64,000 nt of DNA, taken from the NCBI GenBank assembly GCA_016218585.1, contig JACRDK010000030.1:24277-88276 (forward strand). The letters run 5' to 3'. The DNA comes from Candidatus Doudnabacteria bacterium (GTDB lineage: Bacteria > Patescibacteriota > Doudnabacteria > UBA920). Below the pieces are notes generated by a model. That model ran no database searches and was not told the origin of the DNA. It worked only from the letters and a program-made list of their open reading frames with translations. The position numbers were made by a program, and so were the translations under genes. This document shows, piece after piece, positions 7,541 through 60,871 of the stretch (positions are counted from its first letter, which is position 1; each line of letters begins with the position of its first letter).

Positions 7541-7670
7541 TTTTTCCAGATGTTATGATATATACAAATCAAAAAACAAATGAACAAGCGGCAAAATATG
7601 TGCCGTTTTTATTATAAGTAGGATTTTTTTATACCTAGCATCTGTTATCTAATATCTAACATCTAAATTT

Positions 7671-11640: not shown

Positions 11641-11712
11641 GGGAAATATTTAGCATATAGCATATAGTATTTAGAATATAGGAGAGAGAATTTAGAATTA
11701 AGAGAGGAGTTT

Positions 11713-19438: not shown

Positions 19439-20425
19439 ATGCCAAAAGTTGTTATTGTTCAGGTAATATATAATACAAAGAAATTTATTGAGCCGGTGTT
19501 CGGCGCAATTTTTAACCAAACGCACAAAAATTTTGAAGTTGTGGCTGTAATTTCCGGCAACGATGACGGCGGTAAAGAATTGCTCATGCAAAAGTTTCCG
19601 CAGGTAAAGATAATCGATCCCGGCTATAATATAGGTTTTGCCAAGGGCCATAATTTGGTTTTTTCCCAATTTAGCGCGGACTTCTATCAGTTGGTAAATC
19701 CGGATTTTATTATGGAACCGGATTATGTTGAACAGATATTAAAAGTTTTTCAAGATGAAAAAATTGGAGCGGCAACCGGAAAACTGTACCAATTTAAAGA
19801 TTTAAGATTTAAGATTGAAGATTTTAGAAGCAATAAAATTTTAGACACAACTGGGGTCACTATTGGCAAATCAGGAAGAGCAAGGGATAGGGGGCAGCAC
19901 GAAGAAGACAGGGGGCAATATGATAAGAGTACAAATATACAAGCTGTCTCAGCGGCCGGCGCAATGTATCGCGCCTCCGCCCTACAAGCTACAAGCTACA
20001 AGCTACAAACTAGAGTAGAATTTTTTGACGAAGACTTCCATTCTTATTGGGAAGATGTGGATTTGGCCTGGCGGATGAGCAATGCCGGTTGGCAGTGCAA
20101 GTTTGCGCCCTTGGCTGTTGGTTATCATGGCAGGGGAGCAGGGTCTTCCAAAAACGGTTATATGGATGTTGCGGGGTTTGTTAAACACCACAAGACATTG
20201 TCGCCAAGGATCAGGCAGTTAAATTATCAAAACCACATTTTAATGTATGTAAAAAACAGTCCGTGGTTTTATCCGCAGTTTTTTGTCAGGGAATTTTTTA
20301 TGCTTGGCTATATTTTACTTTTTGAAATTAGCACATTAAAAGTTTTGCCGCAGATGCTCCGGCTGCTGCCAAGAATTTGGGAAAAAAGAAAGCTAATAAT
20401 TGATTCCACTCATTCACGGCCGTGA
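19439..20425 (+). CDS. Family 2 glycosyltransferase
   Basis: N-terminal VVIVQVIYNTKKFIEPVFGAIFNQTHKNFEVVAV and D..D motifs; contains an in-frame (tacaagc)x3 microsatellite at about 19983-20006. Confidence 0.8.
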   Translation: MPKVVIVQVIYNTKKFIEPVFGAIFNQTHKNFEVVAVISGNDDGGKELLMQKFPQVKIIDPGYNIGFAKGHNLVFSQFSADFYQLVNPDFIMEPDYVEQILKVFQDEKIGAATGKLYQFKDLRFKIEDFRSNKILDTTGVTIGKSGRARDRGQHEEDRGQYDKSTNIQAVSAAGAMYRASALQATSYKLQTRVEFFDEDFHSYWEDVDLAWRMSNAGWQCKFAPLAVGYHGRGAGSSKNGYMDVAGFVKHHKTLSPRIRQLNYQNHILMYVKNSPWFYPQFFVREFFMLGYILLFEISTLKVLPQMLRLLPRIWEKRKLIIDSTHSRP

Positions 20426-21421: not shown

Positions 21422-22693
21422 ATGGATTTACAAGAAAATCAAACAGAAGAAAAACAGCAGCTCGCAGGACATAAAGCGGCAGGGCTTGCTTTGCGCTGGT
21501 TAATTATTTTATTGGTTGTTTGCGGAGCGTACTTTTCCGGTTTTCAGAGCGGCAAAAAGGGTTTTAGCTTTGACCCAAAAGAATTTAAAGTTATTAATCA
21601 GAGCGAAGCTCCGGCCACGGTAGACTACAGTTTGCTATGGAAAGCGCTGGACGTGGTTCAGGCAAAATATATTGAAAAGAATTCCATAAATCAGCAGAAA
21701 GTTTTATATGGTGCAATTAAAGGGGCGGTGGAATCTTTGGGAGATCCTTACACAACTTTCTTTGAGCCAAAAACTTTGGAGAGTTTTAAAACAGACTTGA
21801 AAGGAAGTTTTGGCGGCATAGGCGCGGAGGTGGGGAAGAAAGATAACAATATTGTGATTGTCGCCCCGCTCGACGACACTCCGGCAAAAAAAGCCGGGCT
21901 GCAGGCTAAAGATATAATTGTTTCGGTGGATGGGCAGTCTACCGCTGACTGGTCGGTAGACCAGGCGGTAGATAAAATTCGCGGAGAAAAAGGCACGGCT
22001 GTTACCTTAAGCATTTATCGGCAAGGCAAAGACAAGCCTTTTGATGTAAAAATCGTCCGCGATATTATTGCGGTAAAAAGCGTAAAGCTTAGTTACAAAG
22101 AAACCGAAGTTAACGGGCAAAAGAAGACCGTGGCCGTTATTACCTTAAGCCGTTTTGGCGATGATACTTTAAATTTATTTACAAAAGCGGTCAATGAAAT
22201 TTTAAGCAAGAATGTCTCCGGCATTGTTTTGGATTTAAGAAATGATCCGGGCGGATATTTGCAAACCGCGGTAGACGTTGCTTCCAGCTGGTTAAATTCC
22301 GGCGACCTAGTGGTTTCCGAAGCTAAGAGCGACGGCACTTCCAACAAATACAATGCTGAAGGGAATAATCGGCTTAAAGGAATTAAAACTGTTGTCTTAA
22401 TTAATGGCGGTTCCGCCTCTGCCGCGGAAATTTTATCCGGCGCGCTCCACGACCATAATATTGCGAAACTTATTGGAGAAAAATCTTTTGGTAAGGGAAG
22501 CGTGCAGGAATTGGTGGACTTGCCCGGCGGCAGCGCTGTTAAGGTTACAGTGGCCAAGTGGATTACCCCAGGCGGCAAGAATTTGAACCATGACGGCTTA
22601 GAACCGGATATCCCGGTTAAACTTACGGACGAAGATTTTACCGCCGGCAAAGACCCGCAAATGGACAAAGCGGTGGAAGAGTTAAGTAAATAA
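21422..22693 (+). CDS. ctpA: Carboxyl-terminal processing protease (S41 family) with PDZ domain
   Basis: PDZ segment (GLQAKDIIVSVDGQS), catalytic region NGGSASAAEI...GKGSVQE, N-terminal TM anchor. Confidence 0.9.
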   Translation: MDLQENQTEEKQQLAGHKAAGLALRWLIILLVVCGAYFSGFQSGKKGFSFDPKEFKVINQSEAPATVDYSLLWKALDVVQAKYIEKNSINQQKVLYGAIKGAVESLGDPYTTFFEPKTLESFKTDLKGSFGGIGAEVGKKDNNIVIVAPLDDTPAKKAGLQAKDIIVSVDGQSTADWSVDQAVDKIRGEKGTAVTLSIYRQGKDKPFDVKIVRDIIAVKSVKLSYKETEVNGQKKTVAVITLSRFGDDTLNLFTKAVNEILSKNVSGIVLDLRNDPGGYLQTAVDVASSWLNSGDLVVSEAKSDGTSNKYNAEGNNRLKGIKTVVLINGGSASAAEILSGALHDHNIAKLIGEKSFGKGSVQELVDLPGGSAVKVTVAKWITPGGKNLNHDGLEPDIPVKLTDEDFTAGKDPQMDKAVEELSK

Positions 22694-22833
22694 ATTTCTA
22701 ATTACCTAATTTACCTAAGTGCTCTAAAAAAACCCAAAAGTTATGGCTAAGCACAGAAGTATGCCAGTATTGAGTATTAAATTATTAGATATTATTTAGG
22801 TTAATTAGAAATTAGAATAATTAGAAATTATCA

Positions 22834-24630
22834 ATGCCAAATATCACAGCGCAAGAATTAAGAAATAAATACCTTAATTTCTTCAAATCAAAAAACCATA
22901 CCATCATTCCTTCGGCGTCTTTGGTGCCAGAAAATGATTCCAGCGTGCTGTTTACAACCGCAGGAATGCATCCACTGGTTCCATATCTTTTAGGACAACA
23001 GCATCCGGGCGGAACCCGTGTAACCGACGTGCAAAAATGCATACGCACCGGCGACATTGAAGAAGTTGGCGACAACACCCATTTAACATTCTTTGAAATG
23101 TTGGGCAATTGGAGTTTTGGCGACTACTTTAAAAAAGAAGCGATTACCTGGAGCTTTGAATTTTTAACCGGCAAAGAAAATTTAAACATTCCGCTTGAAC
23201 GTTTGGCGGTATCAGTTTTTGCCGGAGACAATGATGCTCCGCGCGACGAAGAAGCCGCGGCAATTTGGAAATCTTTAGGCGTGGCGGAAGATCGCATTGC
23301 TTATTTGCCAAAAGCAGATAACTGGTGGATTGCCGGCACAACCGGACCATGCGGGCCGGATACAGAAATGTTTTATTGGATAGACGACGGGACTCCGGCG
23401 CCAAAAAATTTCCAGGAAACCAAGGAAGATAAGCGTTGGGTGGAAATCTGGAATGACGTGTTTATGCAATTTGAAAAGCATGAAGACGGCACGCTTACCC
23501 CTTTGCCAAAACCAAATGTGGATACCGGAATGGGCTTAGACAGAACTTTGGCAGTTTTAAACGGCCAAACCTCGGTTTATGACACTGAACTATTCAAACC
23601 AATGTTTGATGTTTTAGCGATGGACCAGGAAATAATGACTAATGACGAAGTTAAAAAAGCCAGAATTATTTTGGACCATATTCGCGCCGCGGTATTTATT
23701 GTGAGCGACGGAGTTGAGCCTTCAAATAAAGATCGCGGGTATGTTCTAAGAAGGCTTCTAAGGCGCGCGATGGTAATGGGCAGGCTTTTAAATTTAAAAC
23801 TCCACTGGCTTAAAGCTTTGGTTGGCCAGGTTATTTTTGCCTATGCTGAAAGTTATCCGGACCTAACCGCAAAGTCAGAACAAATTTTTGCAACAATTGA
23901 AGGTGAGCAAAAGAAGTTTGAAAGCACATTGGAAAAGGGATTAAAACAATTGGAGTCAAGAATCAAGAGTCAGGAATCAGGAATTAGTGGCACGGATGCC
24001 TTCGATTTGTATCAAACCTATGGTTTTCCGAAAGAGTTAACCAAAGAGCTGGCTGTTCAATCGGGGCAAGTTTTTGATGCGGAAAAAGAAAAAGAGTATG
24101 AAACGGAATTCAAAAAGCATCAGGAACTTTCCCGTACGGCTTCTGCCGGACAGTTTAAGGGCGGGCTAGCGAGCCACTCTGACAAGATTGTGCGCTTGCA
24201 TACCGCCACCCACTTAATGAACGCGGCTTTGAGAAAAGTTTTAGGAACAGACGTTTGGCAAAAGGGGAGTAACATTACCGAAGAGCGCACCAGGTTTGAT
24301 TTTACCCACAATCAGAAAATGACAGACGAAGAAAAGAAGCAAGTGGAAGATTTGGTTAATGGCTGGGTGCAGCGCGATTTAACCGTCAAAAAAGAAATTA
24401 TGCCTTACGAAGAAGCCCGCAAGCTTGAAGCCATTGGCGTGTTCGGAGAAAAGTATGCGGAAACCGTTTCTGTTTATACGGTGTTTGACCCCAATACAAA
24501 TGAAGTTGTTTCCCGCGAATTTTGCGGCGGTCCGCATGTTGAACATACCGGGGTAATCGGCAAATTTAAAATCCAAAAGGAAGAAGCTTCTTCCGCCGGG
24601 GTTCGAAGGATCAAAGCGGTGATAGAATAG
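22834..24630 (+). CDS. alaS: Alanine--tRNA ligase, short form lacking the C-terminal C-Ala domain
   Basis: N-terminal class II core FFKSKNHTIIPSASLVP...FTTAGMHPLVPY, WSFGDYFK, editing-domain HTATHLMNAAL and CGGPHVEHTG motifs; ends ...GVRRIKAVIE. Confidence 0.9.
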   Translation: MPNITAQELRNKYLNFFKSKNHTIIPSASLVPENDSSVLFTTAGMHPLVPYLLGQQHPGGTRVTDVQKCIRTGDIEEVGDNTHLTFFEMLGNWSFGDYFKKEAITWSFEFLTGKENLNIPLERLAVSVFAGDNDAPRDEEAAAIWKSLGVAEDRIAYLPKADNWWIAGTTGPCGPDTEMFYWIDDGTPAPKNFQETKEDKRWVEIWNDVFMQFEKHEDGTLTPLPKPNVDTGMGLDRTLAVLNGQTSVYDTELFKPMFDVLAMDQEIMTNDEVKKARIILDHIRAAVFIVSDGVEPSNKDRGYVLRRLLRRAMVMGRLLNLKLHWLKALVGQVIFAYAESYPDLTAKSEQIFATIEGEQKKFESTLEKGLKQLESRIKSQESGISGTDAFDLYQTYGFPKELTKELAVQSGQVFDAEKEKEYETEFKKHQELSRTASAGQFKGGLASHSDKIVRLHTATHLMNAALRKVLGTDVWQKGSNITEERTRFDFTHNQKMTDEEKKQVEDLVNGWVQRDLTVKKEIMPYEEARKLEAIGVFGEKYAETVSVYTVFDPNTNEVVSREFCGGPHVEHTGVIGKFKIQKEEASSAGVRRIKAVIE

Positions 24631-24677
24631 CTTCTAGTTAGTTGGGGGTAGTTTGTAGTTAGTAGAAGGGAGCCAAA

Positions 24678-25043
24678 ATGCAAATCAAAAGTTATAAAGA
24701 CTTAATTGTCTGGCAAAAATCAATGGATTTGGTAGTGGATATATATAAAATTTCTGAAAAGTTTCCTAAGGAAGAACTGTATGGGCTTACTTCGCAAATT
24801 CGAAGATGTGCAGTTTCAATCCCGTCAAATATCGCCGAAGGAAACAGAAGAGGTAGTAAAAAAGATTTTAGTCATTTCTTAACAGTTTCGTTTGGTTCGG
24901 GGTCTGAACTAGAAACGCAGATAGAAATTGTAAAGCGTTTACCATTTGGAAGTAATCTAGATTTTACAAAGATTGACGCATTATTATTAGAAATAATGAA
25001 AATGCTAAATAAGTTAATTGCAAGCCTACAACCTACTAACTAA
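24678..25043 (+). CDS. Four-helix-bundle protein of the 23S-rRNA intervening-sequence (TIGR02436-like) family, flanked by imperfect inverted repeats
   Basis: YKDLIVWQKSMDLVVDIYKISEKFPKEELYGLTSQIRRCAVSIPSNIAEG matches the four-helix-bundle family. The left flank gtagtttgtagttagtag (about 24646-24664) is inverted relative to the right flank ctactaactaattactac (about 25033-25052). Confidence 0.8.
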   Translation: MQIKSYKDLIVWQKSMDLVVDIYKISEKFPKEELYGLTSQIRRCAVSIPSNIAEGNRRGSKKDFSHFLTVSFGSGSELETQIEIVKRLPFGSNLDFTKIDALLLEIMKMLNKLIASLQPTN

Positions 25044-25060
25044 TTACTACAACCTAGCAA

Positions 25061-26293
25061 ATGAAACTTGAATTTTACAATTGCCCTAAGCCGGAAGAAA
25101 TGCCATCGGTTGGCAACCTCTCCCCATCCCTCTCCCTGCCTACCGGGCAGGCAGGCTCAAAAGGAGAGGGGGCTTTGGTACTGCCGGAGGCTCCGGAGTT
25201 TGTTAAGTATGTTCCGGATTTTGCGCAAATGGAAAAATTGGCGCAGGAATATAAAGACATAAAAAATATTTTAGTCATTGGCCATGGCGGGAGTATTACC
25301 AGTTTTTACGGAATTTATGGGGCGCTAAAAGAGTATGCTACCAAGAAAGCTTATTTTTTAAGCACCGTAGACGCGGATTATATTTATGAGCTTAAAAAAA
25401 CTTTAAGCCCGCAGGATACTTTGGTTATTGCCATTAGCAAGTCCGGCGAGACAATGACGCAAATAGAAATGCTTGCGCAGTTTTTGGAATTTCCGCTTCT
25501 GTTTATTACCGGCAAAAGCAGCCCGCTCCGCGCTATGGCGGATAAATTAAAAGCAAAAATTATAATGCATCCGCCAATCGGCGGACGCTATACTGCCATG
25601 ACAGAGGTTGGCTTGCTTCCCGCGGCGATTGTTGGCCTAGACGTAAAGAATTTGTACGAAGGCGCGAAGCTGTTTTATTATCGCTACGACAAAGATAATT
25701 TGGCTTTTAAAGCAGCCTCTGTATTATATAAGCTGGAAGCGCAAGGTTATGTAGATGTCTTTATGCCTTTTTATACTTCTAGGGTTTTTCCGCTTAGCAA
25801 TGTAATTGTCCAGCTGTGCCATGAAAGCTTTGGCAAGAACGGCAAAGGCCAAACTTATTTTGCCCACGAAGCCCCGGAAAGCCAGCATCATACTAACCAA
25901 AGGTTTTTTGGCGGCATAAAAAATATTTGCGGTTTCTTTACTTCTGTGGATAATTTTGACCACAAATTGGTCTCCGTATTTCCGCCTCAGCTGCATAGCG
26001 TACAGTTAAAAGGCCATGCGCTTTTTGACGTAAATAAAATTCCTCTCCAGGCGGCAATGGAGTATGAATTGCTCGGCACAATGGAAGACGCCCGCATTCA
26101 GGGCATTCCAATGCTTCATATGTCGCTTGCCTCGGTTACCCCGTTTGAAATTGGCGGACTTCTGGCTTTTTGGCAGCTTTATGCGGTTTATGCGTCAGTT
26201 TTGCGCGGCGTTGACCCTTTTGACCAGCCTCAAGTGGAAAGCAGTAAAAAAATTAGCTTTAATAAGAGGTTGGCTTTTAAAGGGTTGCTATAA
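25061..26293 (+). CDS. pgi: Glucose-6-phosphate isomerase, short (about 410 aa) form
   Basis: ILVIGHGGSITSF (GxGGS region) and C-terminal VDPFDQPQVESSKK (the PGI FDQxGVE signature). The N-terminal 45 aa is non-conserved and partly GC-rich. Confidence 0.8.
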   Translation: MKLEFYNCPKPEEMPSVGNLSPSLSLPTGQAGSKGEGALVLPEAPEFVKYVPDFAQMEKLAQEYKDIKNILVIGHGGSITSFYGIYGALKEYATKKAYFLSTVDADYIYELKKTLSPQDTLVIAISKSGETMTQIEMLAQFLEFPLLFITGKSSPLRAMADKLKAKIIMHPPIGGRYTAMTEVGLLPAAIVGLDVKNLYEGAKLFYYRYDKDNLAFKAASVLYKLEAQGYVDVFMPFYTSRVFPLSNVIVQLCHESFGKNGKGQTYFAHEAPESQHHTNQRFFGGIKNICGFFTSVDNFDHKLVSVFPPQLHSVQLKGHALFDVNKIPLQAAMEYELLGTMEDARIQGIPMLHMSLASVTPFEIGGLLAFWQLYAVYASVLRGVDPFDQPQVESSKKISFNKRLAFKGLL

Positions 26294-29718: not shown

Positions 29719-29800
29719 ACTTCCAAGATTTAGGGTTTAAGATTGCAAATTTACCGCATAATAAATCTTAATTCATTATTCATAATTCTTAATTCTATTT

Positions 29801-34287: not shown

Positions 34288-34650
34288 TTTTGGGGTGGTA
34301 GTTTTTATTGCGCCAAGCAAACTCATAAGCCGAATTCTGTTTTAAAATAATCATCTATCTTGTCCCGATGTTGCCATCGGGATCGAGCAGCCTACCAAAT
34401 TTGGCCTTGCACTCAAGTAAGGATTTGGCCGTTTCACTCCCGCATTGCTGCGGGAACAGTCCAGCTCTTTTTTGCAAAAGGGTTGGACTACTTAGCCTTT
34501 CGGCATCAGTCGTTTCTGTTCGCACCTCTAGGATTACTCCCGACGGGAATTACCCGCTACCATTCTTGATAACTCTATAGAGGTTATCAAATAAGTGTTC
34601 GGACTTTCCTCCCCGCCCTTTGGATTGCATTAAAGACAATTTTGAATGCG
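34288..34650 (-). ncRNA. rnpB: RNase P RNA (bacterial type), minus strand; exact ends approximate
   Basis: The reverse complement contains the universally conserved P4 strand GGGCGGGGAGGAAAGUCCGAAC, GGGAGUGAAACGGCC, GCAAGGCCAAAU...GGUAGGCUGCUCGAUCC and the 3' P4 partner ACAGAAUUCGGCUUAU, in canonical order. GC-rich relative to its surroundings. The track ORFs at 34360-34580 lie within it and are non-coding artefacts. Confidence 0.8.
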
Positions 34651-34941
34651 CTTGCGTAAGTGCCCCCACGAGCTACCATATTGCTTAAGCTTAATTTCTC
34701 TTATTAGCGCATCCTTTTTATTAGCGTACGCTTCGTAATAAACTAATTTAAACGGAGCGTAAGCTTTTGTCGCTGTTTCTTTAGAAGCATTATGTTGAGA
34801 AAATCTTGCTTTTAAATCACCGGTTTGACCGATGTAAATAAAATCAGACTTTATACTCTTAATTATGTAAACATAATGCATATGCAATCCAAAGAGCGGG
34901 GCGATTATTCGGTTTGCTTGGAGCAACCAGTATAATAGCAT
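34630..34941 (-). CDS. GIY-YIG nuclease-domain small protein
   Basis: YVYIIKSIKSDFIYIGQTGDLKARFSQHN (GIY..YIG..R..H.N core); 103 aa; its 3' end abuts or overlaps the 5' end of rnpB on the same strand. Confidence 0.7.
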   Translation of the reverse strand: MLLYWLLQANRIIAPLFGLHMHYVYIIKSIKSDFIYIGQTGDLKARFSQHNASKETATKAYAPFKLVYYEAYANKKDALIREIKLKQYGSSWGHLRKRIQNCL

Positions 34942-35016
34942 TATTTGACATTAATGTCAATATATAGTGTAATATAACCCTTTTTCTTAAGAAAAAGACG
35001 TGGTATAATAAGGAGT

Positions 35017-36450
35017 ATGAAAAAGACCGAACTTCTTTTTAACTTAATTTCCATTCCGGTGGACGCTATTTCCTTGCTTTGTGCGGGAATTGCGTCTTTT
35101 TATTTGCGCCAAAAAACCACCACCATTGTCGGGCCAATTATTTACCAATTGGAAATAAACAGTTTCCTGTCCGTGGTCTACAAAATAATTTTGTTTTTAA
35201 TTATCCTGTTTGCGCTGCTTGGTTTGTATAACTTAAAGGGCACCCGCAAATTTATTTCTGAGTTGGGCAGGATTGTCGTCGGCGAGTCGCTCGGGCTTTT
35301 GCTAGTTATATTATTATTCTTTTTTAATCAAAATATTTTCCCATCCAGGTTCATAATTTTGGCTACTTGGGGTTTAGGGATAGTTTTTGTTATTTGCGGC
35401 CGTTTAATTTTAAAACTTTTCCAGACATTTTTGTTTGCTAAAAATATCGGCCTGCATAAATTAATTGTTATAAAAGGCGGCGTGGAGCAGCCGGTTATTG
35501 AGAGCGTTTATAAAAACAGGCGCAATGGCTACGAAATTGTAGCCGAATTGCCGGTCAATGAAAAACTTTTGGAAAAACTGGAAGAGTTTTACAACCGCGG
35601 ACAAATAGACGAAATTCTCCAAACTAACGCCGGATTGGGTGACGCTGATAATTTAAAATTGGTTCAGTTTGCCCGCGGCAAAGGGCTAAAGTTTAGTTTT
35701 GTTCCAAATTTGTTCGAGGTGCAGCGCAACATTATTGAAACAGAAAGCGTGAATGGCTTGCCGGTAATTAGTTTAAAAAATACCCCGTTGGACGGCTGGG
35801 GAAAAGTTATAAAAAGAATTTTGGATGTTGTTGTGAGTTTTGTTTGCCTGTTGTTAACCTCGCCGCTTTTTTTAATAATTACAATTGCAATTAAACTTGA
35901 TTCCAAAGGCAAAGCAATATACTCCGCCTTGCGCGGAGGCCGCGGAAAAGATTTTCGGTTTTACAAATTCCGCAGCATGTATCAGCACTTAAGCGTTGGA
36001 AAAGAATATGGCGGGGAAAACGCGGAAAAAATCAGGCAGGAGCTGTGGCATAAAAATGACCGCGGCGGGGAAAATGGCCCGTTCTTAAAAATTAAGGACG
36101 ACCCCAGGGTTACTAAAGTTGGGAAGTTTTTGCGCCGCAGCAAGTTAGACGAAATTCCGCAGTTTTGGAATGTATTAAAAGGGGATATGAGCATGGTTGG
36201 TCCCAGGGCTCATGTTTTGGACGAAGTTGAACGTTATAGGAACCGCTATCCAAGAATGTTTAGCATTAAGCCGGGAATTTTTGGGCTTTCCCAAATTGCC
36301 CAGGTATCCTGGCCGGACTTGCCGTTTGAAGAAGAAATTCGCCTAAATACTTTTTACATAGAAAATTGGTCCGTCTGGCTGGACATAAAAATTTTGGCAA
36401 AGACTTTTTGGCTGTTATTTTTTGCCAAAAAACCAAAAACCGATTATTAA
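35017..36450 (+). CDS. Polyprenyl-phosphate sugar phosphotransferase (initiating glycosyltransferase, WbaP/WcaJ-like)
   Basis: N-terminal TM bundle, CoA-binding-like central region, C-terminal bacterial sugar transferase domain (MSMVGPRAHVLDE..., PGIFGLSQIAQVSWPDLPFEEEIRLN...YIENWSVWLDIKIL). Confidence 0.85.
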   Translation: MKKTELLFNLISIPVDAISLLCAGIASFYLRQKTTTIVGPIIYQLEINSFLSVVYKIILFLIILFALLGLYNLKGTRKFISELGRIVVGESLGLLLVILLFFFNQNIFPSRFIILATWGLGIVFVICGRLILKLFQTFLFAKNIGLHKLIVIKGGVEQPVIESVYKNRRNGYEIVAELPVNEKLLEKLEEFYNRGQIDEILQTNAGLGDADNLKLVQFARGKGLKFSFVPNLFEVQRNIIETESVNGLPVISLKNTPLDGWGKVIKRILDVVVSFVCLLLTSPLFLIITIAIKLDSKGKAIYSALRGGRGKDFRFYKFRSMYQHLSVGKEYGGENAEKIRQELWHKNDRGGENGPFLKIKDDPRVTKVGKFLRRSKLDEIPQFWNVLKGDMSMVGPRAHVLDEVERYRNRYPRMFSIKPGIFGLSQIAQVSWPDLPFEEEIRLNTFYIENWSVWLDIKILAKTFWLLFFAKKPKTDY

Positions 36451-36459
36451 ATTTTAAAC

Positions 36460-37617
36460 ATGAATGTTGCCTTAGCTCATGATAGTTTAACGCAGTTGGG
36501 GGGTGCTGAGCGCGTGCTGGATGCTTTGCACGAAGTTTATCCAGACTCTCCGGTTTTTGTTTTAGTGATGGACAAAAAGCTTAAGCAAAAATATCAGGCC
36601 TGGGATATTCGCACTTCGTGGCTGCAGGTTATTTATAATTTTTTGCCAAAACTGCAGTATTTGTTGCCGTTAATTCCTTTGGCTGTTTCCTCTTTAGATT
36701 TTAGCGGCTACGACGTGGTAATTTCTTCCAGCTCAGGGTTTATTAAAAATATAAAAACCCCCAAAAATAGCATTCATATAAATTATTGCCATACTCCTAC
36801 CAGATTTTTGTGGAGCGAACCGGAATATGTTGACCAGGAAGTGCCAAAAATTTTAAGGCCGCTGGCAAAATTATTTTTAGCCTGGATGAAAAAATGGGAC
36901 TTTAAGGGCGCGCAAAGAGTAAATTATTTTTTAGCCAATTCCAAAGAAGTGCAAAAAAGAATTACTCAATATTATAAACGCGGAAGCGAAGTAATTTATC
37001 CATTTGTTGATACAGCTTTCTGGAAGCCAAGTAAGTGGCGTCATTCTGAGGGATTGCAGCCGACCGAAGAATCCCAAAATGGAAATCCAACGAATCTCGT
37101 TCAAAATGCCGCAGCAGGCAAAAGCAACTATTTTTTGTTAGCCGGACGGCTGCAAGCGCACAAAATGAATGAATTGATAATAAATATTTTTAATAAACTA
37201 AAACTGCCGCTCCATGTAGTTGGAACCGGCAGGCAGGAAGAATATTTAAAATCAATTGCCGGCCCCAATATTACTTTTTTAGGCCGGGTTACCGATGAGC
37301 AGTTAAGAAGTGAATACAGCTCGGCATTGGCTTTTATTTACCCCCAGGTGGAAGATTTTGGCCTTATGCCGCTGGAAGCTGCCGCTTGTGGGACCGCAAC
37401 GATTGCTTACGGCAAAGGTGGCGCGCTTGAGACAGTTATGCAGAATGCCACAGGAGAGTTTTTTTATTCATATAATCCGGAAGAGATTTCCAAACTAATA
37501 ATTTCCTTTAATCCGGAAAAATATTCTCAAGAAGTCTTCCGCCGCCAGGCAGAAAAATTTAGTAAGGATAAATTTAAAAGCGAAATTGTAAATTTTATTA
37601 ATTCTTTAAATTTATAA
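36460..37617 (+). CDS. Family 4 glycosyltransferase
   Basis: FIYPQVEDFGLMPLEAAACGTATIAYGKGGALETV. Confidence 0.85.
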   Translation: MNVALAHDSLTQLGGAERVLDALHEVYPDSPVFVLVMDKKLKQKYQAWDIRTSWLQVIYNFLPKLQYLLPLIPLAVSSLDFSGYDVVISSSSGFIKNIKTPKNSIHINYCHTPTRFLWSEPEYVDQEVPKILRPLAKLFLAWMKKWDFKGAQRVNYFLANSKEVQKRITQYYKRGSEVIYPFVDTAFWKPSKWRHSEGLQPTEESQNGNPTNLVQNAAAGKSNYFLLAGRLQAHKMNELIINIFNKLKLPLHVVGTGRQEEYLKSIAGPNITFLGRVTDEQLRSEYSSALAFIYPQVEDFGLMPLEAAACGTATIAYGKGGALETVMQNATGEFFYSYNPEEISKLIISFNPEKYSQEVFRRQAEKFSKDKFKSEIVNFINSLNL

Positions 37618-37618
37618 T

Positions 37619-38311
37619 ATGGAACTTAAAAATAAAGTAATTGTTATAACTGGTTCTAGTAAAGGCTTAGGTAAGGGTTTGGCTAAGGCATTTATTCAAC
37701 ATGGTTCCATTGTTGTTTTAAATGGCAGAAATAAAACCGAGTTAGATTCAGCCGCTAAAGAGCTTAATTGCTTTGCGCTAGTTGGTGATGTCTCCAAAGA
37801 GCAGGAGCTTGAAAGTTTAAAAGATAAAGTGTTAGAGAAATATGGAAAAATTGACGTATGGATTAACAATGCGGGCTTTTGGATTCCGCGTTCTACGGTG
37901 GAAGATACTGACTGGGCCGGGGTTGCTCACAAATTGTTTGAGGTTAATTTTTTCGGAACAGTTTTTGGCTCTAAAGTTGCCCTAACACAAATGAGGCGTC
38001 AAGGTTCCGGCGTTATTATAAATATTTTATCAACTGGGGCATTGGATGGCAGAGAAAAATCTTCGGCTTATCGTTCAAGTAAATTTGCTGCTGCTGGCTT
38101 TACCAAGTGTTTAAGGAGAGAGCTTGCTGGCAGCGGAATATCAGCGCTTTCAATTTATCCCGGTGGAATGAAAACTAATTTATTTGATGCAGAGATTCCA
38201 GAAGACTTTGATAAATATATGGAAGTCGATTTTGTAGCAGACAAGATTCTAAATAATCTTTTGAGTGACAAATCGGAAGAAGAATTAATTATTGCCAGGC
38301 CAAATAGATAA
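37619..38311 (+). CDS. Short-chain dehydrogenase/reductase (SDR) family oxidoreductase
   Basis: KVIVITGSSKGLGKGLAKAF (TGxxxGxG), NNAG, catalytic YRSSKFAAAGF (YxxxK). Confidence 0.85.
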   Translation: MELKNKVIVITGSSKGLGKGLAKAFIQHGSIVVLNGRNKTELDSAAKELNCFALVGDVSKEQELESLKDKVLEKYGKIDVWINNAGFWIPRSTVEDTDWAGVAHKLFEVNFFGTVFGSKVALTQMRRQGSGVIINILSTGALDGREKSSAYRSSKFAAAGFTKCLRRELAGSGISALSIYPGGMKTNLFDAEIPEDFDKYMEVDFVADKILNNLLSDKSEEELIIARPNR

Positions 38312-38317
38312 TTTATT

Positions 38318-39439
38318 ATGAAAATCGCGATTGATTTAAGAAGCTTGTCCAGCGGCAGCATATCGGGCGTAGAAAATTACTGTATAAACCTGGTAGACAG
38401 CCTGCTAAAACTGGATAAGGAAAACCAATACATACTATTTTACAATGCTTTTTCCAAAAAACTTTTGGGTGATTTTCACTTTGTAAATTCGCAAGTTAAA
38501 CACTCCAAGCTGCCAAATAAAGTTTTAAACTTGCTATTTAAAACAGGCATGATTAATGTGGAAAAATTGGCAGGGGAGTTTGACTTGTTTTTTATGCCAA
38601 ACTTAAATCAGTACAACATTTTGCCCGGCGCCAAGCTGGCAATAACCGTGCACGACCTGTCCCCGGTAATCACCCCGGAATTTTATGATGCGAAAAGGCG
38701 GCTCTGGCATAAATTTTTAAATTATAAAAAAGCATTTAACCGCGCCGATAAATTATTCGCGGTTTCCGAATACACCAAGAATGATCTTATAAAAGTTTTT
38801 GGCATAAATGAGGAAAAAATTAAAGTAATCTACCCTGGGCTAGACCACGGCTTATTTAACGAAAATATATCCGAAGAAAAACAAAGACAGGTTCGCAACG
38901 AATACGGCTTGCCGGGAAATTTCTTTTTGTTTTTAAGCACCGTTGAACCAAGGAAAAACCTTGCCGGATTAATTAAAGCGTTTGAGCAGGTTAAAAGCCC
39001 TGCCTCTTTGGTTGTGGCCGGGCGCTTGGGGTGGAAATACAGAAAAGATTTTGAGTTAATTAAACACAGCAAAAAAAGTGCAAAAATTAAGTATATTGGC
39101 TATATTAAAGAGAGCGACAAGCCGGCGCTAATAAAGTTAAGCAAGGCTTTGGTCTACCCGAGTTTCTACGAAGGGTTTGGCTTCCAACCCTTAGAAGCAA
39201 TGGCCATAGGCACTCCGGTTGTAGCTAGCCAGGTCACCTCTTTGCCCGAAGTTAGCAACGGCGCGGCTTTTTTGGTTAATCCATATAATGTTGGCGATTT
39301 AACTGCGGCTTTAGAAGCTGTCTCTGAAAACGAAAGTCTAAGGCAGTCTTTAATTTCAAAAGGCCTGGACAGAGCCCAAAAGTTTACTTGGCAAAAAGCG
39401 GCCGCAGAGGTTTTGGAAAATTTTAAATCTATAAAATAA
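38318..39439 (+). CDS. Family 4 glycosyltransferase
   Basis: EGFGFQPLEAMAIGTPVVASQVTSLPEV. Confidence 0.85.
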   Translation: MKIAIDLRSLSSGSISGVENYCINLVDSLLKLDKENQYILFYNAFSKKLLGDFHFVNSQVKHSKLPNKVLNLLFKTGMINVEKLAGEFDLFFMPNLNQYNILPGAKLAITVHDLSPVITPEFYDAKRRLWHKFLNYKKAFNRADKLFAVSEYTKNDLIKVFGINEEKIKVIYPGLDHGLFNENISEEKQRQVRNEYGLPGNFFLFLSTVEPRKNLAGLIKAFEQVKSPASLVVAGRLGWKYRKDFELIKHSKKSAKIKYIGYIKESDKPALIKLSKALVYPSFYEGFGFQPLEAMAIGTPVVASQVTSLPEVSNGAAFLVNPYNVGDLTAALEAVSENESLRQSLISKGLDRAQKFTWQKAAAEVLENFKSIK

Positions 39440-40566
39440 TGGCGAAAAGAATTGGTCTAGACATTAGAATATTTGGCAGCATGAATGGCGGAATTGGCCG
39501 CTATGCTTTTGAATTATTTACCAGAATTTTGGAGCTGGATAAAGAGAATCGCTACTTTTTATTTTACAACAAGAAAAATGTTGACTTTAAAGATTTGGAA
39601 AGTTTTAAGAAATTTCCAAACGCCGAGCCGGTGGAAACTTCGGTGCGCCATTACTCAATAGCCGAACAAAGTTTATTTGTAAAAACATTGAATGATTTAA
39701 ATTTAGATTTGGTTCATTTTCCAAATTTTAATGTCCCGTTTTTTTATAAAAAACCTTATGTGGTAACTATTCACGATATGGTTCACCATAAAATCAGCGG
39801 CAATAAAAAAAGCCATTTATTGCATTTTTATGCCTATAAAAAAATTATAGAAAACGCGGCAATAAAAGCTAAAAAAATTATTACCATTTCGGATTTTTCC
39901 AAGCAGGAAATAATTAAGTATTTAAACGCGGACCCGCAAAAAATAAGCGTTATTTATGAAGGAACGTCATTGGGGACTAATGTGGAAGAGTCTTTTGTGG
40001 CGGAAGTAAAAAAACGCTATTTGCTTAGCCGTCCTTATTTTTTGTTTGTCGGAGTTTTAGAGAGAAAAAAGAATATTATAAATTTAACCAGAGGGTTTGA
40101 TTATTTTTTACAGAAATATAAATTAAACGTTGATCTGGTTATTGCGGGAAAAATAGACAAACACTATCCGGAAATTAAGCATAAAGCAATGGACATTAAG
40201 CATCAAAACCATTTGGTTTTTACCGGCTACGTGGATGACGACGAACTGCGCGCTCTATATAAAGGGGCATATGCCTATGCCTCGGCTTCGCTGCATGAGG
40301 GTTTTGGTTTGCCCGGAGTGGAAGCCTTGTCTTTTGGCTTGCCCTTGCTTGTCTCCAACTTGCCGGTTTTTAATGAAGTTTATGACAACGCGGCTCTTTA
40401 CTTTAATCCGCTTGACCCAAAAGATATTGGTGAAAAAATGAATTTGCTTGTAAGAGACAATCAATTTTATTCCCAGGTTCAGGAAAAAAGCCATTCAAGA
40501 AGTTTGTTCTTTGACTGGAACAAAACCGCGCGCGAAACTTTGGCAATTTATAAACAAAATTTATGA
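39439..40566 (+). CDS. Family 4 glycosyltransferase
   Basis: EGFGLPGVEALSFGLPLLVSNLPVFNEV. Confidence 0.85.
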   Translation: MAKRIGLDIRIFGSMNGGIGRYAFELFTRILELDKENRYFLFYNKKNVDFKDLESFKKFPNAEPVETSVRHYSIAEQSLFVKTLNDLNLDLVHFPNFNVPFFYKKPYVVTIHDMVHHKISGNKKSHLLHFYAYKKIIENAAIKAKKIITISDFSKQEIIKYLNADPQKISVIYEGTSLGTNVEESFVAEVKKRYLLSRPYFLFVGVLERKKNIINLTRGFDYFLQKYKLNVDLVIAGKIDKHYPEIKHKAMDIKHQNHLVFTGYVDDDELRALYKGAYAYASASLHEGFGLPGVEALSFGLPLLVSNLPVFNEVYDNAALYFNPLDPKDIGEKMNLLVRDNQFYSQVQEKSHSRSLFFDWNKTARETLAIYKQNL

Positions 40567-41669
40567 GAATATTGTTGGTTGGCGGCGGCAGCGGCGGGCC
40601 GGTTTCACCGCTTCTGGCGGTCGCCGAAAAAATTAAATTAACGCACAGCCAGGCAAAATTTTTGCTGGTCGGCACTAAGACTGGCCCGGAAAAGGGGATG
40701 GCGGAAAACTACCGCATCCCGTTTTTGGCAATTCATAGCGGTAAGCTGCGGCGCTATTTTTCCTGGCAAAATTTTCTTTCCCCGGTTTTTATTATTGCCG
40801 GATTTTTCCAGTCCATAAAAATAATAAAAGATTTTAAGCCCGATTGTGTTTTTGGGGCCGGCAGTTTTGTCCAGGTGCCAATGGTTTGGGCGGCTTGGTT
40901 TTTGCGCGTGCCGGTTGTTATCCATCAACAGGATGTTTTTCCCAGCTTGGCAAATAAGCTTTGCCAATTGGCCGCAAGTAAAATTACCGTAACATTTTCC
41001 TCAAGCCTGTCCGCCTTTGCCAGCAACTTAGGGTTTTTTTATAAAAAAAAGCAGGACAAAGTAGTTCTTACCGGCAATCCATTTCGGCAGGAATTAGACC
41101 AGGGCTTAAAACTTCAAGCTTTAAAAGAGTTTAACTTAAAACCCGATATGCCAACCCTGCTGGTTTTAGGCGGAGGCACGGGAGCGGAATTCTTTACCAA
41201 GCTAATGTCGGAAGCTATGCCTATTTTGGGAAAAACCGCCCAGGTTATTCATTCTACCGGCAAGGGGAAAATGCCCAAAGAAAATTTTGAAAACTATTAT
41301 AAAACTGAATTTCTAAACTCAGGCCAGCTGGCTAACGCCTACGCGGCCGCGGATATTGTGCTTTCCCGGGCAGGGCTCGCGACTATTACCGAGTTGTCAT
41401 TTTTGGAAAAATTAAGTATAATTGTCCCCATGCCGCAGAGCCATCAGGAAATAAACGGAGCATATTTGTTAGGCAAAGAAGCGGCTATAGTTTTGCCCCA
41501 GGAAAAAATAAATGCGCGGAATTTTACTAATTTAATACGCAAATTAATTTTTGACGTAGAAGCGCAGAAGTTTTTTCAGAAAAATATGGGCAAACTAATG
41601 CCAAAAGAAGGCGCAAAAAAAATTGCGGAGATTATAATTAAAATTGCGGAAACTAACAATGCAGATTAA
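40563..41669 (+). CDS. murG: Undecaprenyldiphospho-muramoylpentapeptide beta-N-acetylglucosaminyltransferase
   Basis: MRILLVGGGSGGPVSPLLAVAEKI (the G-loop of MurG); a roughly 370-aa GT28 architecture; overlaps the upstream GT4 stop by 4 nt. Confidence 0.85.
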   Translation: MRILLVGGGSGGPVSPLLAVAEKIKLTHSQAKFLLVGTKTGPEKGMAENYRIPFLAIHSGKLRRYFSWQNFLSPVFIIAGFFQSIKIIKDFKPDCVFGAGSFVQVPMVWAAWFLRVPVVIHQQDVFPSLANKLCQLAASKITVTFSSSLSAFASNLGFFYKKKQDKVVLTGNPFRQELDQGLKLQALKEFNLKPDMPTLLVLGGGTGAEFFTKLMSEAMPILGKTAQVIHSTGKGKMPKENFENYYKTEFLNSGQLANAYAAADIVLSRAGLATITELSFLEKLSIIVPMPQSHQEINGAYLLGKEAAIVLPQEKINARNFTNLIRKLIFDVEAQKFFQKNMGKLMPKEGAKKIAEIIIKIAETNNAD

Positions 41670-42588
41670 TACAGCAAAACCGACTTTAGGACTGGCTTTT
41701 TCCGGCAGCGGCAACCGCAGTTCGTTTTATGTTGGATTTTTGGAAGTATTGGATGAGCACAGCATCACGGTTGACCATATTGCAGCCTGCAGCGGAGGGG
41801 CACTGGCAGCCGCGGCTTATGCTTGCGGCACATTGCCGGAATTTAAAGAGAAAATATTTAGCCTTACCAGAGATTCTTTGAAAAGCTATTTGGTTAGAAC
41901 GTCCAATAATGGGGGATTGTATAATATAGATTTATTTGAAGAGCTTATGAGGGAGTTCACCAAAGGCCAAAATTTTGAAGATGTCCGCCCATTAATGTCG
42001 TTCGTGGCTATTGATATTGAAACCGGAGAGAAAGTGGTTTTGTGCATGGGTGACATAGCAAAAGCCGCCAGGATTTCCTGCACCTTACCCGGGGTATTTG
42101 AACCGGTAAAGTGGGGAGGAAAAACTTTGGTAGACGGCGGTCTTCTCACAATGGTTCCCGGTTTTGCTTTAAAACGGGCTGGAGTGGATGTAAGTGTTGG
42201 AATAAATATGCGAGGCACTAAACATATTTTTACCGAATCGCAAATTAACGCAAAAAAAGTTTTAAACTTTTTCAAAAAAATATTGTTTATAAACGAACTG
42301 GAAGAACTGTTTGGAAATTTGTTAAAATTAGAAGAATTGGACTTTGAAAAAAACCCAAATTTTTTCCAGGTAGTGGGCAAGAGCTTGGATTTAGCCATTA
42401 AGGCAAATAAAAATCCAAAACCGGAAGACGAAGAATGCACGCTGGTAATTGAGCCAAAACTTCCAAGGCTAAAACAAAGCGAATTTAGCCCGGAAGCGGT
42501 TAAATATTATTATGAAATGGGGCGTGAAGTAGCGCTGCAGTATGTGCCAAAAATTAACGAATTATTAAAGGTAGGGGTAAAACAATGA
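41644..42588 (+). CDS. Patatin-like phospholipase
   Basis: GLAFSGSGNRSSFYVGFLEVL (oxyanion G-G-x-R/K), ACSGGALAAAAYA (GxSxG nucleophile), VDGGLL (catalytic Asp, DGG). Overlaps murG by 26 nt and murC by 4 nt. Confidence 0.8.
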   Translation: MRKLTMQINTAKPTLGLAFSGSGNRSSFYVGFLEVLDEHSITVDHIAACSGGALAAAAYACGTLPEFKEKIFSLTRDSLKSYLVRTSNNGGLYNIDLFEELMREFTKGQNFEDVRPLMSFVAIDIETGEKVVLCMGDIAKAARISCTLPGVFEPVKWGGKTLVDGGLLTMVPGFALKRAGVDVSVGINMRGTKHIFTESQINAKKVLNFFKKILFINELEELFGNLLKLEELDFEKNPNFFQVVGKSLDLAIKANKNPKPEDEECTLVIEPKLPRLKQSEFSPEAVKYYYEMGREVALQYVPKINELLKVGVKQ

Positions 42589-44054
42589 ACGAACTTATAA
42601 ATTTGGAAGAAATTTTACAGCCCGGAGGAAAAATTTATTTTGTGGGAATTGGCGGCATTGCAATGTCTGCCGTTGCCGGTATGGCTGCCAAGCTTGGGTT
42701 TGAAGTGGCGGGGTCAGACAGTAAAGAGCTTTACTCGCCCTCAAAGGAGATTTTGGCCGAGCATAAAATAAATTGTTTTCTTGGTTATAAAGCGGAGCAG
42801 GTTGCGGAGGCAAAAGCTAATGTTTATGTTTTGTCGGCCGGGGAGAATGAAAATAATCCGGAAGTGGACTACATAATAAAAAACAATTTGCCTCGGGTGT
42901 CCTTTGCCGAGCTGCTCTATTTTTTTAGCAAAGACAGCTTAAGAGTTGTTGTTGCAGGCACGCACGGCAAATCCACCACTACCGGCCTGTTAGGGCATTT
43001 ATTTAAAAATTTGGACAACAGTTCCTTTTTAGCCGGAGGAGTTTTGCAAAATTACCAAAGCAATTTTTATTTGGGAGACGGCCACTATTTTGTTTTTGAG
43101 GGAGATGAATACAAGGCTCAGTTCGACGATCCGAGCCCGAAGTTCCATTATTACAAACCGGATATTTTAGTGCTTACCAATTTGGAGTATGACCACCCGG
43201 ATTTGTTCCCGAACTTTGAAAGTTTGCAAAGCGAGTTTAGGCTGCTAATTGAAAAAATGCCGGAAGACGGGCTGATTGTTTATAATGCGGATGACGCCGA
43301 ACTAAGCAAACTCGTTCACGAGTCCAATATTTCTACTGTGAGTTTTGGCATAGATAATGAGGCGGATGTAAAAACAGAGCAGATTCAGTTTGGCTCCGAT
43401 TTTACAACTATTGAAGTGCTAAATAAATTTTCAAAAAATGTCGCCACGCATTTAATGGGGCAAACCGAGCAGTATAAAATTCAGCTCCCAGGTAAAATAA
43501 ATGTTTATAATGCCTTGGCGGGAATTGCCCTGCTGCGTTCTTTAGGTTTTGCCCAGGAGCAAATTGCGTTGGAACTTTTAAGCTACCTAGGAATTAAAAG
43601 AAGATTTGAAGTCGTTTCTAAAAAGGGCGGCATTACCATTATTGACGACTACGCGCACCACCCAACCGCGGTAAGCGAAACGCTAAAAGCCGCTAAATTA
43701 AAGTACCCTGATTCTAAAATTTGGGCTGTATTTGAGCCTCACACCTTTAGCCGCACCAAAGCAACAATAAACGAGCTGGCGGCAAGTTTTGACCAGGCAA
43801 ATGAAGTGCTGTTGTCCGAAATTTATCCGGCCAGAGAAAAAGCCAGTACGGGCGGAATAACTTCCGGAGATGTAATAAATGCAATTAAGGAGCATAATAC
43901 AAAACACAAAATACATAATACAATAAGGCATGTTGCCGACAAAGAGCAGGCACTAAATATTTTGCGAGAAGAATTAAAATCCGGAGATGTTGTCATTATT
44001 ATGGCCGTTGGCGCCTTTAACCGCCTGGCCTATGAATTAAAGGAGATTATATGA
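42585..44054 (+). CDS. murC: UDP-N-acetylmuramate--L-alanine ligase (MurC; Mpl-type ligase not excluded)
   Basis: IYFVGIGGIAMSAVAGMAAKLGFEVAGSD, GTHGKSTTTGLL (P-loop), YNADDAEL; position between murG and murB. Confidence 0.8.
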   Translation: MNELINLEEILQPGGKIYFVGIGGIAMSAVAGMAAKLGFEVAGSDSKELYSPSKEILAEHKINCFLGYKAEQVAEAKANVYVLSAGENENNPEVDYIIKNNLPRVSFAELLYFFSKDSLRVVVAGTHGKSTTTGLLGHLFKNLDNSSFLAGGVLQNYQSNFYLGDGHYFVFEGDEYKAQFDDPSPKFHYYKPDILVLTNLEYDHPDLFPNFESLQSEFRLLIEKMPEDGLIVYNADDAELSKLVHESNISTVSFGIDNEADVKTEQIQFGSDFTTIEVLNKFSKNVATHLMGQTEQYKIQLPGKINVYNALAGIALLRSLGFAQEQIALELLSYLGIKRRFEVVSKKGGITIIDDYAHHPTAVSETLKAAKLKYPDSKIWAVFEPHTFSRTKATINELAASFDQANEVLLSEIYPAREKASTGGITSGDVINAIKEHNTKHKIHNTIRHVADKEQALNILREELKSGDVVIIMAVGAFNRLAYELKEII

Positions 44055-60777: not shown

Positions 60778-60871
60778 ATACAAATATACAAATATACAAA
60801 TGCACAAATGATACAAATAATTACTAATGTCATTATTTGTAGGTATTAGTTCCATCCGTTTATTTGTAGAT
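60778..60871. repeat. Short repeat array in the secD-secF spacer: five direct (A/G)(T/C)ACAAAT units at 8-9-bp spacing followed by two inverted copies (TTATTTGTAG)
   Basis: gatacaaat atacaaat atacaaat gcacaaat gatacaaat ... cattatttgtagg ... gtttatttgtaga, read directly. Confidence 0.7.

Follow-up and report, generated by a model that had tools for sequence, protein, structure and literature searches.

A 64,000-nucleotide (nt) stretch of Candidatus Doudnabacteria DNA (contig JACRDK010000030.1, positions 24,277 to 88,276; the whole stretch is termed the window herein, and positions are counted from its first letter) contains, between alaS and pgi, an element of 433 nt (24628-25060) that spans exactly from the alaS stop to the pgi start. 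It consists of an open reading frame (ORF) for a small four-helix-bundle protein of the kind known from rRNA intervening sequences (IVSs), flanked on both sides by tandem heptamers, the two arrays being inverted relative to each other. We consider it probable that the element represents a full copy of a hitch-hiking cassette of wide distribution, in which an Avd-like ORF sits between inverted heptamer arrays in the architecture of an IVS. As a single locus it is ordinary for its family; the architecture seen across the family is what is of interest.

The cassette gene and its heptamer arms

The left arm consists of six heptamers and the right arm of five heptamers of the reverse-complement type (Table 1). 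The alaS stop codon is the first TAG of the left array (24628), and the recurrence of TAG with a period of 7 in this array places stops in all three frames. The right array begins inside the 3′ end of the ORF, holds the ORF stop codon (TAA, 25041-25043), and ends 1 base before the pgi ATG at 25061. A repeat search returned direct repeats within each array and four inverted pairs between the arrays. An initial annotation of the window, made by a model from the letters and reading frames, had described an imperfect inverted repeat of about 19 bp whose right arm ends exactly at the pgi start. This repeat is present, with 15 of 18 positions pairing between 24648-24665 and 25033-25050, but it is really part of two inverted heptamer arrays, and the quoted right arm stops 10 nt short of pgi, whereas its array does end at 25060. 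The quoted 18-mer arm had 5 matches at ≤3 mismatches, against 0.03 expected. Among 55 window genes, the cassette gene ranked second in the complementarity of its flanks, with 10 of 1,000 shuffles reaching its score.

Table 1 Features of the alaS-pgi junction and its predicted closing stem
Feature	Position	Strand	Details
alaS	22834-24630	+	Upstream host gene, co-oriented; NF002436, 773 bits (cutoff 529)
Left arm	24628-24669	+	Six heptamers: TAGCTTC TAGTTAG TTGGGGG TAGTTTG TAGTTAG TAGAAGG
Closing stem, 5′ strand (predicted)	24641-24665	+	24641-24646, 24648-24652, and 24656-24665; minimum-free-energy (MFE) and centroid structures of RNA 24622-25066
Shine-Dalgarno-like purine-rich stretch AGAAGGGAG	24664-24672	+	5 to 13 nt 5′ of the ORF start
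Four-helix-bundle gene	24678-25043	+	PF05635/TIGR02436; 3′-terminal codons and stop lie within the right array
Right arm	25026-25060	+	Five heptamers: CTACAAC CTACTAA CTAATTA CTACAAC CTAGCAA; reverse-complement type of the left arm
Closing stem, 3′ strand (predicted)	25033-25058	+	25033-25042 with 24656-24665 (10 bp); 25046-25050 with 24648-24652 (5 bp); 25053-25058 with 24641-24646 (6 bp)
PGI-family gene (pgi)	25061-26293	+	Downstream host gene, co-oriented; starts directly after the right arm

Profile searches with Pfam, NCBIfam (TIGR and NF), PHROG, and PADLOC models, with scores judged against the curated cutoffs, clearly assign the predicted 121-amino-acid product to the Avd-like PF05635/TIGR02436 four-helix-bundle proteins. 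PF05635 matched with an E value of 2.3e-39 (134.3 bits, cutoff 33.8; positions 1 to 106 of the 106-position profile covered), TIGR02436 with 3e-38 (130.3 bits, cutoff 24), and NF008911 with 140.1 bits (cutoff 137). The nearest solved structure is the pentamer of Xanthomonas XCC0516 (2GSC; E = 3e-25), and 2RLD, also a pentamer, matched as well (E = 1e-6); homology to these two suggests that the cassette protein may likewise assemble as a pentamer. It is mildly basic, with a computed isoelectric point (pI) of 9.0. A protein identical to it is recorded for a Candidatus Doudnabacteria genome, which places the window in a bacterium of the Patescibacteria (candidate phyla radiation, CPR). No PADLOC family matched at E ≤ 0.01, and a role in anti-phage defense was therefore rejected. 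The initial annotation had recognized the IVS type of the gene, for which the first two of these models score far above their cutoffs, and its position between alaS and pgi, which holds up as well: the alaS model is matched with a wide margin (Table 1), and the downstream gene encodes a divergent PGI-family protein that passes the Pfam PGI cutoff and falls under the NCBIfam cutoffs.

The purine-rich stretch upstream of the ORF lies immediately to the 3′ side of the left-arm segment predicted to pair, and similar stretches (AGGA/GGAG-like) occur between the left array and the ATG in relatives. The ORF is probably translated from this Shine-Dalgarno-like site of its own; no Shine-Dalgarno sequence is visible for pgi upstream of its ATG. 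Neither a sigma-70-like promoter nor an intrinsic terminator was predicted between alaS, the ORF, and pgi, so that expression of the ORF from its own promoter or terminator-bounded unit was rejected. Because the element fills the spacer exactly and has no recognizable promoter or terminator of its own, it is probably cotranscribed with the operon.

Heptamer arms and mobility across the gene family

The cassette feature is convincing because of a family-wide comparison only. It covered 80 metagenomic loci with relatives at 49 to 69% identity, plus loci obtained by exact-protein look-ups; autocorrelation and duplex energy were computed for 77 relatives, arrays were counted at 71 unique loci, and mismatches were scored in the arms of 59 loci. 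Autocorrelation at lag 7 was 0.48 in the 60 nt upstream of the gene and 0.42 around its 3′ end, against approximately 0.27 at other lags or inside the ORF. Arrays were present upstream at 69% of the unique loci, downstream at 69%, and on at least one side at 87%, compared with 6.5% upstream and 19% downstream for the flanks of other ORFs of the same loci. The median local-alignment score was 30 when the two flanks of one gene were aligned in inverted orientation, 15 for flanks taken across loci, and 13 in direct orientation, and 58% of the loci lay above the 95th percentile of the cross-locus scores.

The upstream units begin with TAG in 82% of cases, and the remaining four bases vary from locus to locus (TAGGGAA, TAGCCAC, TAGATTT, TAGGCTT, TAGTTTG, and others). 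Within a locus, the array on the downstream side reads as the reverse complement of its upstream partner, and the variable bases co-vary between the two arms (GCTT/GCAC, ATTT/ACAT, GGAA/GGAT, and CCAC/CCAA). At the alaS-pgi junction, the units TAGTTTG and CTACAAC are unlike the commonest spacer units of the genome (TTAGAAA and similar) and match the arms of the closest protein relatives elsewhere. These results support the view that the inverted flanks go with the gene and not with the site it occupies; relatives located between other genes have arms of the same kind. At one locus, L088, the units appeared individually inverted with their left-to-right order kept on both sides, which was treated as chance; L103, L119, and L149 show inversion of the whole array. 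The pattern extends to cultured bacteria, with relatives in Riemerella carrying GGTTTAA/TTAAACC arrays. It is frequent but not universal, because the copies on pCC7120gamma of Nostoc PCC 7120 and on a Calothrix plasmid have arrays without matched inverted arms.

The relatives occupy diverse contexts, including rpiB-rpe, a pilin operon, a type IV secretion system (T4SS) pilin-rho junction, a position downstream of tyrS, and protease-tsaD. Their neighbors are mostly co-oriented with them (upstream in 56 of 66 cases, downstream in 61 of 65), and with median gaps of only 42 and 31 nt, respectively, the spacers hold little beyond the arms. TAG is the stop codon of the upstream gene at 43 of 56 loci, compared with 26 of 105 among other ORFs, and the array thus provides the host gene with its stop. 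An array phased on TAG halts translation in any frame within 21 nt, since its period of 7 is not divisible by 3.

The statement in the initial annotation that such genes are classically found inside 23S rRNA is misleading. An Rfam scan placed none of 20 related loci in rRNA and detected no rRNA in the 64-kb window, and most relatives are located between co-oriented protein genes. The absence of TAG from an array was considered as a mark of rRNA-borne copies and was rejected, since the 20 scanned loci included non-TAG arrays.

The kinship with classical IVSs is nevertheless close. In the 23S rRNA IVS of Azospirillum lipoferum 4B (L178), the arms are 36 nt long and 86% complementary, and each is a period-7 array. 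The Coxiella IVS has two to three GACAGAT heptamers upstream of its ORF, in a copy number that varies by strain, and RNase III cuts at the first GACAGAT repeat (PMC4990558). CPR rRNA insertions encoding a four-helix-bundle protein have also been reported (bioRxiv 10.1101/2024.02.27.582315). Because heptamers make up the Azospirillum arms and precede the Coxiella ORF, the window element and the classical IVSs share both the protein and the construction of the arms. Like the IVSs of Leptospira, Coxiella burnetii, Xanthomonas, and Azospirillum with their S23p ORFs, the element has a PF05635 ORF of some 120 codons in its loop, which a (here predicted) stem of terminal inverted repeats closes, and the size of the element is close to the 428 nt of the Coxiella IVS. 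It differs in that it lies in an mRNA spacer and not in an rRNA helix, in the phased TAG that serves as the stop of the upstream gene, and in the good Shine-Dalgarno-like site and purifying selection of its ORF, whereas the Coxiella ORF is reported to be decaying and untranslated. RNase III excision is known for the rRNA IVSs; for the window element a counterpart would follow by analogy.

That members of this class move is observed in relatives of the window element. Locus L091 has an ORF-less hairpin of the same units, with a 6-nt loop, in the TIM-rpiB spacer adjoining its cassette. On the 2.3-kb contig L108, one cassette occurs three times, in spacers that follow one another: truncated (240-300), complete (1046-1470), and with an internal deletion (2113-2243). 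The deleted copy retains both arms as well as the first 16 and the last 8 codons, and it has ATT microhomology at the deletion junction. Fourteen-mers of the arms are about five times as frequent within the locus they come from as at other loci. Members of the cassette class have moved from locus to locus and from genome to genome, leaving ORF-less or internally deleted derivatives that resemble transposable elements of the miniature inverted-repeat type (MITEs). Viewed by the features of an insertion sequence or MITE, the class has inverted arms and deletion derivatives, and no transposase was found among the scanned window ORFs.

The copy in the window is an old one that has been inherited vertically, and purifying selection maintains its protein. 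The cassette is in place at the alaS-pgi junction of relatives whose AlaS proteins are 93%, 84%, and 62% identical to that of the window (L081 to L090). Between the window ORF and that of L081, 46 codons have synonymous differences only and 19 have nonsynonymous ones, and with respect to L088 the cassette protein is 78% identical, compared with 62 to 63% for its neighbors. The ORFs of L081 (4001-4366) and L082 (3655-4020) differ at only 1 of 366 nt, while their alaS and pgi genes are 89% and 94% identical; recent exchange, gene conversion, or constraint on synonymous sites could account for this. The left arms of the same two loci differ by one heptamer unit. In the Doudnabacteria relative L001 (AlaS 64% identical), the cassette is absent from the junction, which holds an unrelated 83-codon ORF instead; at its two ends the only candidate for arm remnants or a target duplication is the 7-nt TTAGGTT, which is not interpretable. 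Neither the window nor 80 alaS loci of reference genomes yielded a further cassette copy in a search of the kind proposed in the initial annotation. Its description of a portable, hairpin-flanked module therefore stands for the family, in which the arms follow the gene, derivatives exist, and an empty junction is found in L001, but not in the sense of a recent move of this copy. In the same way, the conservation in place that it had named as counterevidence is found within the clade, yet mobility of the family is evident in relatives.

Closing stem, host operon, and competing explanations

In the reading of the element as a hitch-hiking cassette, the insert would be transcribed along with the alaS-pgi operon, and the TAG-phased left array would end the upstream reading frame in whatever frame it arrives, as the statistics across the family suggest. 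The arms are then predicted to pair as an interrupted stem of about 21 bp that would close off the insert and bring the alaS stop next to the pgi start. The predicted stem has 21 bp in total with two internal loops, is found in the MFE and centroid structures alike (fold z = −3.15 for 24622-25066), and in this fold its base sets the alaS stop beside the pgi start, with AGAAGGGAG just inside the loop. The arms of this locus would form a duplex of −34.7 kcal/mol in sense RNA and of −28.0 kcal/mol in antisense RNA. By analogy with the rRNA IVSs, the stem would be a likely RNase III substrate, and it may make the insertion tolerable to the host operon by RNase III-type processing, by structural bypass, or by both. 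The mildly basic pentamer might, as a guess, bind the arms or their transcript.

Several results weigh against this reading. Judged within the window alone, the inverted repeat is of marginal significance: the alignment score of its arms is 21, below the family median, with a shuffle probability of about 0.01, and period-7 arrays are common in other spacers of the same genome, which weakens any argument drawn from the window by itself. The arms have no RNA-specific mismatch signature (36 A.C against 35 G.U mismatches, with 109 transversions), a comparison of limited power because the arrays can pair in several registers. Nor is the sense arm duplex generally more stable than the antisense one (32 versus 45 of the 77 loci, P = 0.19). 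Mobility is shown for the family and not for this copy, because the copy is fixed across the whole clade. No empty site close enough to give insertion boundaries or a target duplication was found among the relatives, and a target duplication is not definable because the only empty junction, that of L001, is too diverged.

The lack of an RNA-specific signature means that pairing could matter in DNA or that the arms could be protein-binding sites. A serious competing explanation, to which we give a clearly smaller but real chance, is therefore that the arms act in DNA, as terminal inverted repeats or hairpin/cruciform sites for a recombinase supplied in trans or as sites bound by the pentamer, so that the cassette is moved or copied, any RNA stem being a by-product. 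It is compatible with the cassette reading and partly complementary to it, and differs in which molecule carries the function. The ORF-less and internally deleted derivatives keep both arms as MITEs do, several copies occur in one contig (L108), and the number of units differs between close relatives. Equal use of G.U and A.C and the lack of asymmetry between sense and antisense energies would be expected if both strands or duplex DNA matter. Avd, a homologue of the protein, likewise functions together with nucleic acids, in the diversity-generating retroelements (DGRs) (PMC10053308). On the other side, no transposase, recombinase, or reverse transcriptase was found in the cassette or among the scanned ORFs within about 20 kb, nor could a target-site duplication be identified. 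The same arms are known, in the rRNA-borne copies, to function as an RNA stem that RNase III cleaves (PMC4990558), and the strong bias toward the strand of the neighbors is not predicted by a function at the DNA level alone.

A far less likely explanation, already largely refuted, is that the flanks are the ordinary heptamer leaders and trailers of the genome, complementary by chance, and that the gene is a conserved resident. The other period-7 arrays of the window, several of them directly before start codons, and the ORF-less inverted pair in the ctpA-alaS spacer would fit it, as would the marginal significance of the inverted repeat and the conservation of gene and flanks in place. However, the arms follow the gene across unrelated contexts and phyla with units that co-vary within each locus, control ORFs of the same loci seldom have arrays, the deletion derivatives retain both arms, and the units at this junction resemble those of the closest protein relatives and not the common spacer units of the genome.

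CPR genomes are rich in DGRs, and weak matches of the ORF to bAvd (PF22296, E = 1.4e-4), DivGenRetAVD (NF033474, E = 2e-5), and the PHROG family “Avd protein of DGR” (E = 1.4e-7) might suggest an Avd accessory protein separated from or orphaned by its reverse transcriptase, but this is highly improbable, as the scores are far under the cutoffs (22.8 versus 40 bits for PF22296 and 24.7 versus 80 bits for NF033474), alaS and pgi flank the gene in every relative of this locus, and the 25 window ORFs scanned (approximately 11-28100 and 35000-45600) include no reverse transcriptase, with no dedicated search made for template and variable repeats.

The cassette as we read it shares features with several known systems. 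With the Avd proteins of DGRs (bAvd, PDB 4DWL) it has in common a homologous four-helix-bundle fold, membership in a pentamer family, and a small, basic protein; unlike them, it has no adjacent reverse transcriptase, and its protein falls under the cutoffs of the Avd-specific models. The DGR components that PMC10053308 lists do not include inverted heptamer arrays around the gene, a statement that applies to that list and not to the DGR avd genes, which were not inspected. MITEs and REPtrons (repetitive extragenic palindromes [REPs] with their REP-associated tyrosine transposase [RAYT] genes) likewise have a gene between inverted copies of a short repeat that is found elsewhere as ORF-less hairpins, and internal-deletion derivatives that keep both ends. 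In contrast to these, the cassette protein is no recognizable transposase or HUH enzyme, the arms are tandem heptamers and not a unique palindrome, and the cassettes sit precisely between stop and start codons in operons. Integron gene cassettes are also small, promoterless, co-oriented ORFs within a transcribed array, and each ORF has its imperfect inverted repeat, but here there is no integrase and no single attC-type 3′ site, the ORF lies between the two halves of its repeat, and the cassettes are scattered among housekeeping operons.

A further likeness is to the dispersed heptamer arrays of other bacteria. In Xanthomonas, GGGAATC arrays form 70 to 75 convergent pairs and have been described as G-quadruplex formers (PMC4692102); Geobacter metallireducens has paired “global regulator sites” made of heptamer arrays (PMC2700814); and the TAACTGA repeats of Beggiatoaceae are possible translational regulators (PMC4679880). 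These arrays and the short tandemly repeated repetitive sequences (STRRs) of cyanobacteria are, like the cassette arms, period-7 tandem arrays in spacers, often located directly upstream of start codons and frequently paired in inverted orientation at a distance of about 100 nt, and ORF-less pairs adjoin cassettes in the loci studied here. They differ in the roles proposed for them (G-quadruplexes, IHF/HU binding, and translational control), and the three papers make no link to four-helix-bundle genes. The resemblance suggests a link between the cassettes and the published dispersed arrays. In the literature searched, which was incomplete, so that an earlier description is possible, the Coxiella IVS was the only published link of four-helix-bundle genes to heptamer arrays.

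To our knowledge, the function of PF05635 proteins, the origin of rRNA IVSs, and the heptamer arrays of cyanobacteria, Xanthomonas, Geobacter, and others have been without explanation for about 30 years. The present data tie the first of these to the second, and a link to the third is suggested: a unit of ORF and inverted heptamers occurs in rRNA, occurs far more often at operon junctions, and leaves ORF-less hairpins. The vague idea of a selfish IVS thereby becomes testable, in the form of a stem that would neutralize the insertion, the phasing of TAG, and binding of the pentamer to the arms. For the annotation of CPR and other genomes, it means cassettes embedded in essential operons that supply stop codons to housekeeping genes. 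A broader proposal, which we regard as speculative and rather doubtful as a whole, is that the cassettes form a distinct, very widespread class of transposase-less mobile elements colonizing transcribed spacers, both operon junctions and, as IVSs, rRNA helices; that the dispersed heptamer arrays and pairs (cyanobacterial STRRs, Xanthomonas GGGAATC arrays, Geobacter sites, and CPR spacers) would be their ORF-less derivatives; and that the Avd-like pentamer would be their own nucleic acid-binding factor for maintenance or spread, perhaps with a reverse transcriptase acting in trans.

Other repeats in the window and in related loci

Heptamer arrays occur at other places in the window. The glycosyltransferase family 2 (GT2) gene (19439-20425) contains an in-frame (CTACAAG)x4.4 array (19982-20012; amino acids ...LQATSYKLQT...), which agrees with the 3′ arm of the L081 cassette in its unit and in its end (CCCTACAAGCTACAAACTA) and has the look of a lone arm that a coding region tolerates. 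The same gene has another in-frame array, (ATTTAAG)x5, 160 nt farther upstream (19792-19828). The ctpA-alaS spacer has an ORF-less inverted pair of short tandem arrays (22693-22723 and 22796-22829), with a perfect 12-nt pair (AATTTCTAATTA and TAATTAGAAATT) and a 13-nt pair with one mismatch. Its polarity, CTA type followed by TAG type, is opposite to that of the cassette. The pair is conserved in L081, and pairs of this kind occur in other spacers of the Doudnabacteria relatives L001, L081, and L088. Further period-7 arrays (7646-7666, 11651-11698, 22803-22830, 29762-29796, and 53740-53777) have units such as TATCTAA, TAGCATA, AATTAGA, and TAATTCT, and several end a few bases 5′ of the starts of genes without a visible Shine-Dalgarno sequence, which suggests that heptamer leaders may be in use genome-wide.

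Inverted repeats were also observed around or beside other small genes. At 34611-34941, a small GIY-YIG nuclease ORF (Pfam E = 5e-17), the sole minus-strand gene noted among ORFs of at least 90 amino acids, lies in a 770-nt gap between 20-nt inverted repeats that are 95% complementary (34611-34630 and 34882-34901), making it a second hairpin-flanked small ORF of selfish type. In L091, inverted octamer arrays (TACGAAAT x2 and ATTTCGTA x2; 713-796 and 1205-1270) surround a small PDDEXK_3 (PF13366) gene that shares an operon with a four-helix-bundle cassette. Small hitch-hiking genes of more than one family may therefore have arms of the array type. The spacer at 60778-60870, which scores near the top for intergenic inverted repeats in the window, has an octamer array, (ATACAAAT)x5, followed about 20 nt on by inverted copies of the TTATTTGTAG type.

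The PGI-family gene downstream of the cassette has a 22-amino-acid in-frame insert (GNLSPSLSLPTGQAGSKGEGAL; window 25115-25180) that its orthologues in L001 and L081 lack. The insert is specified by a GC-rich hairpin (CCTCTCC...CTGCCTACCGGGCAGGCAG...GGAGAGG, −31.9 kcal/mol) that occurs once in the window and is similar to small palindromic elements in the spacers of L091. Finally, a 366-nt tandem repeat (3573-4621; 2.9 copies, 79% matches) lies within a surface-protein-like ORF (2958-7289) of 1,443 amino acids with DUF11/DUF7507 domains.

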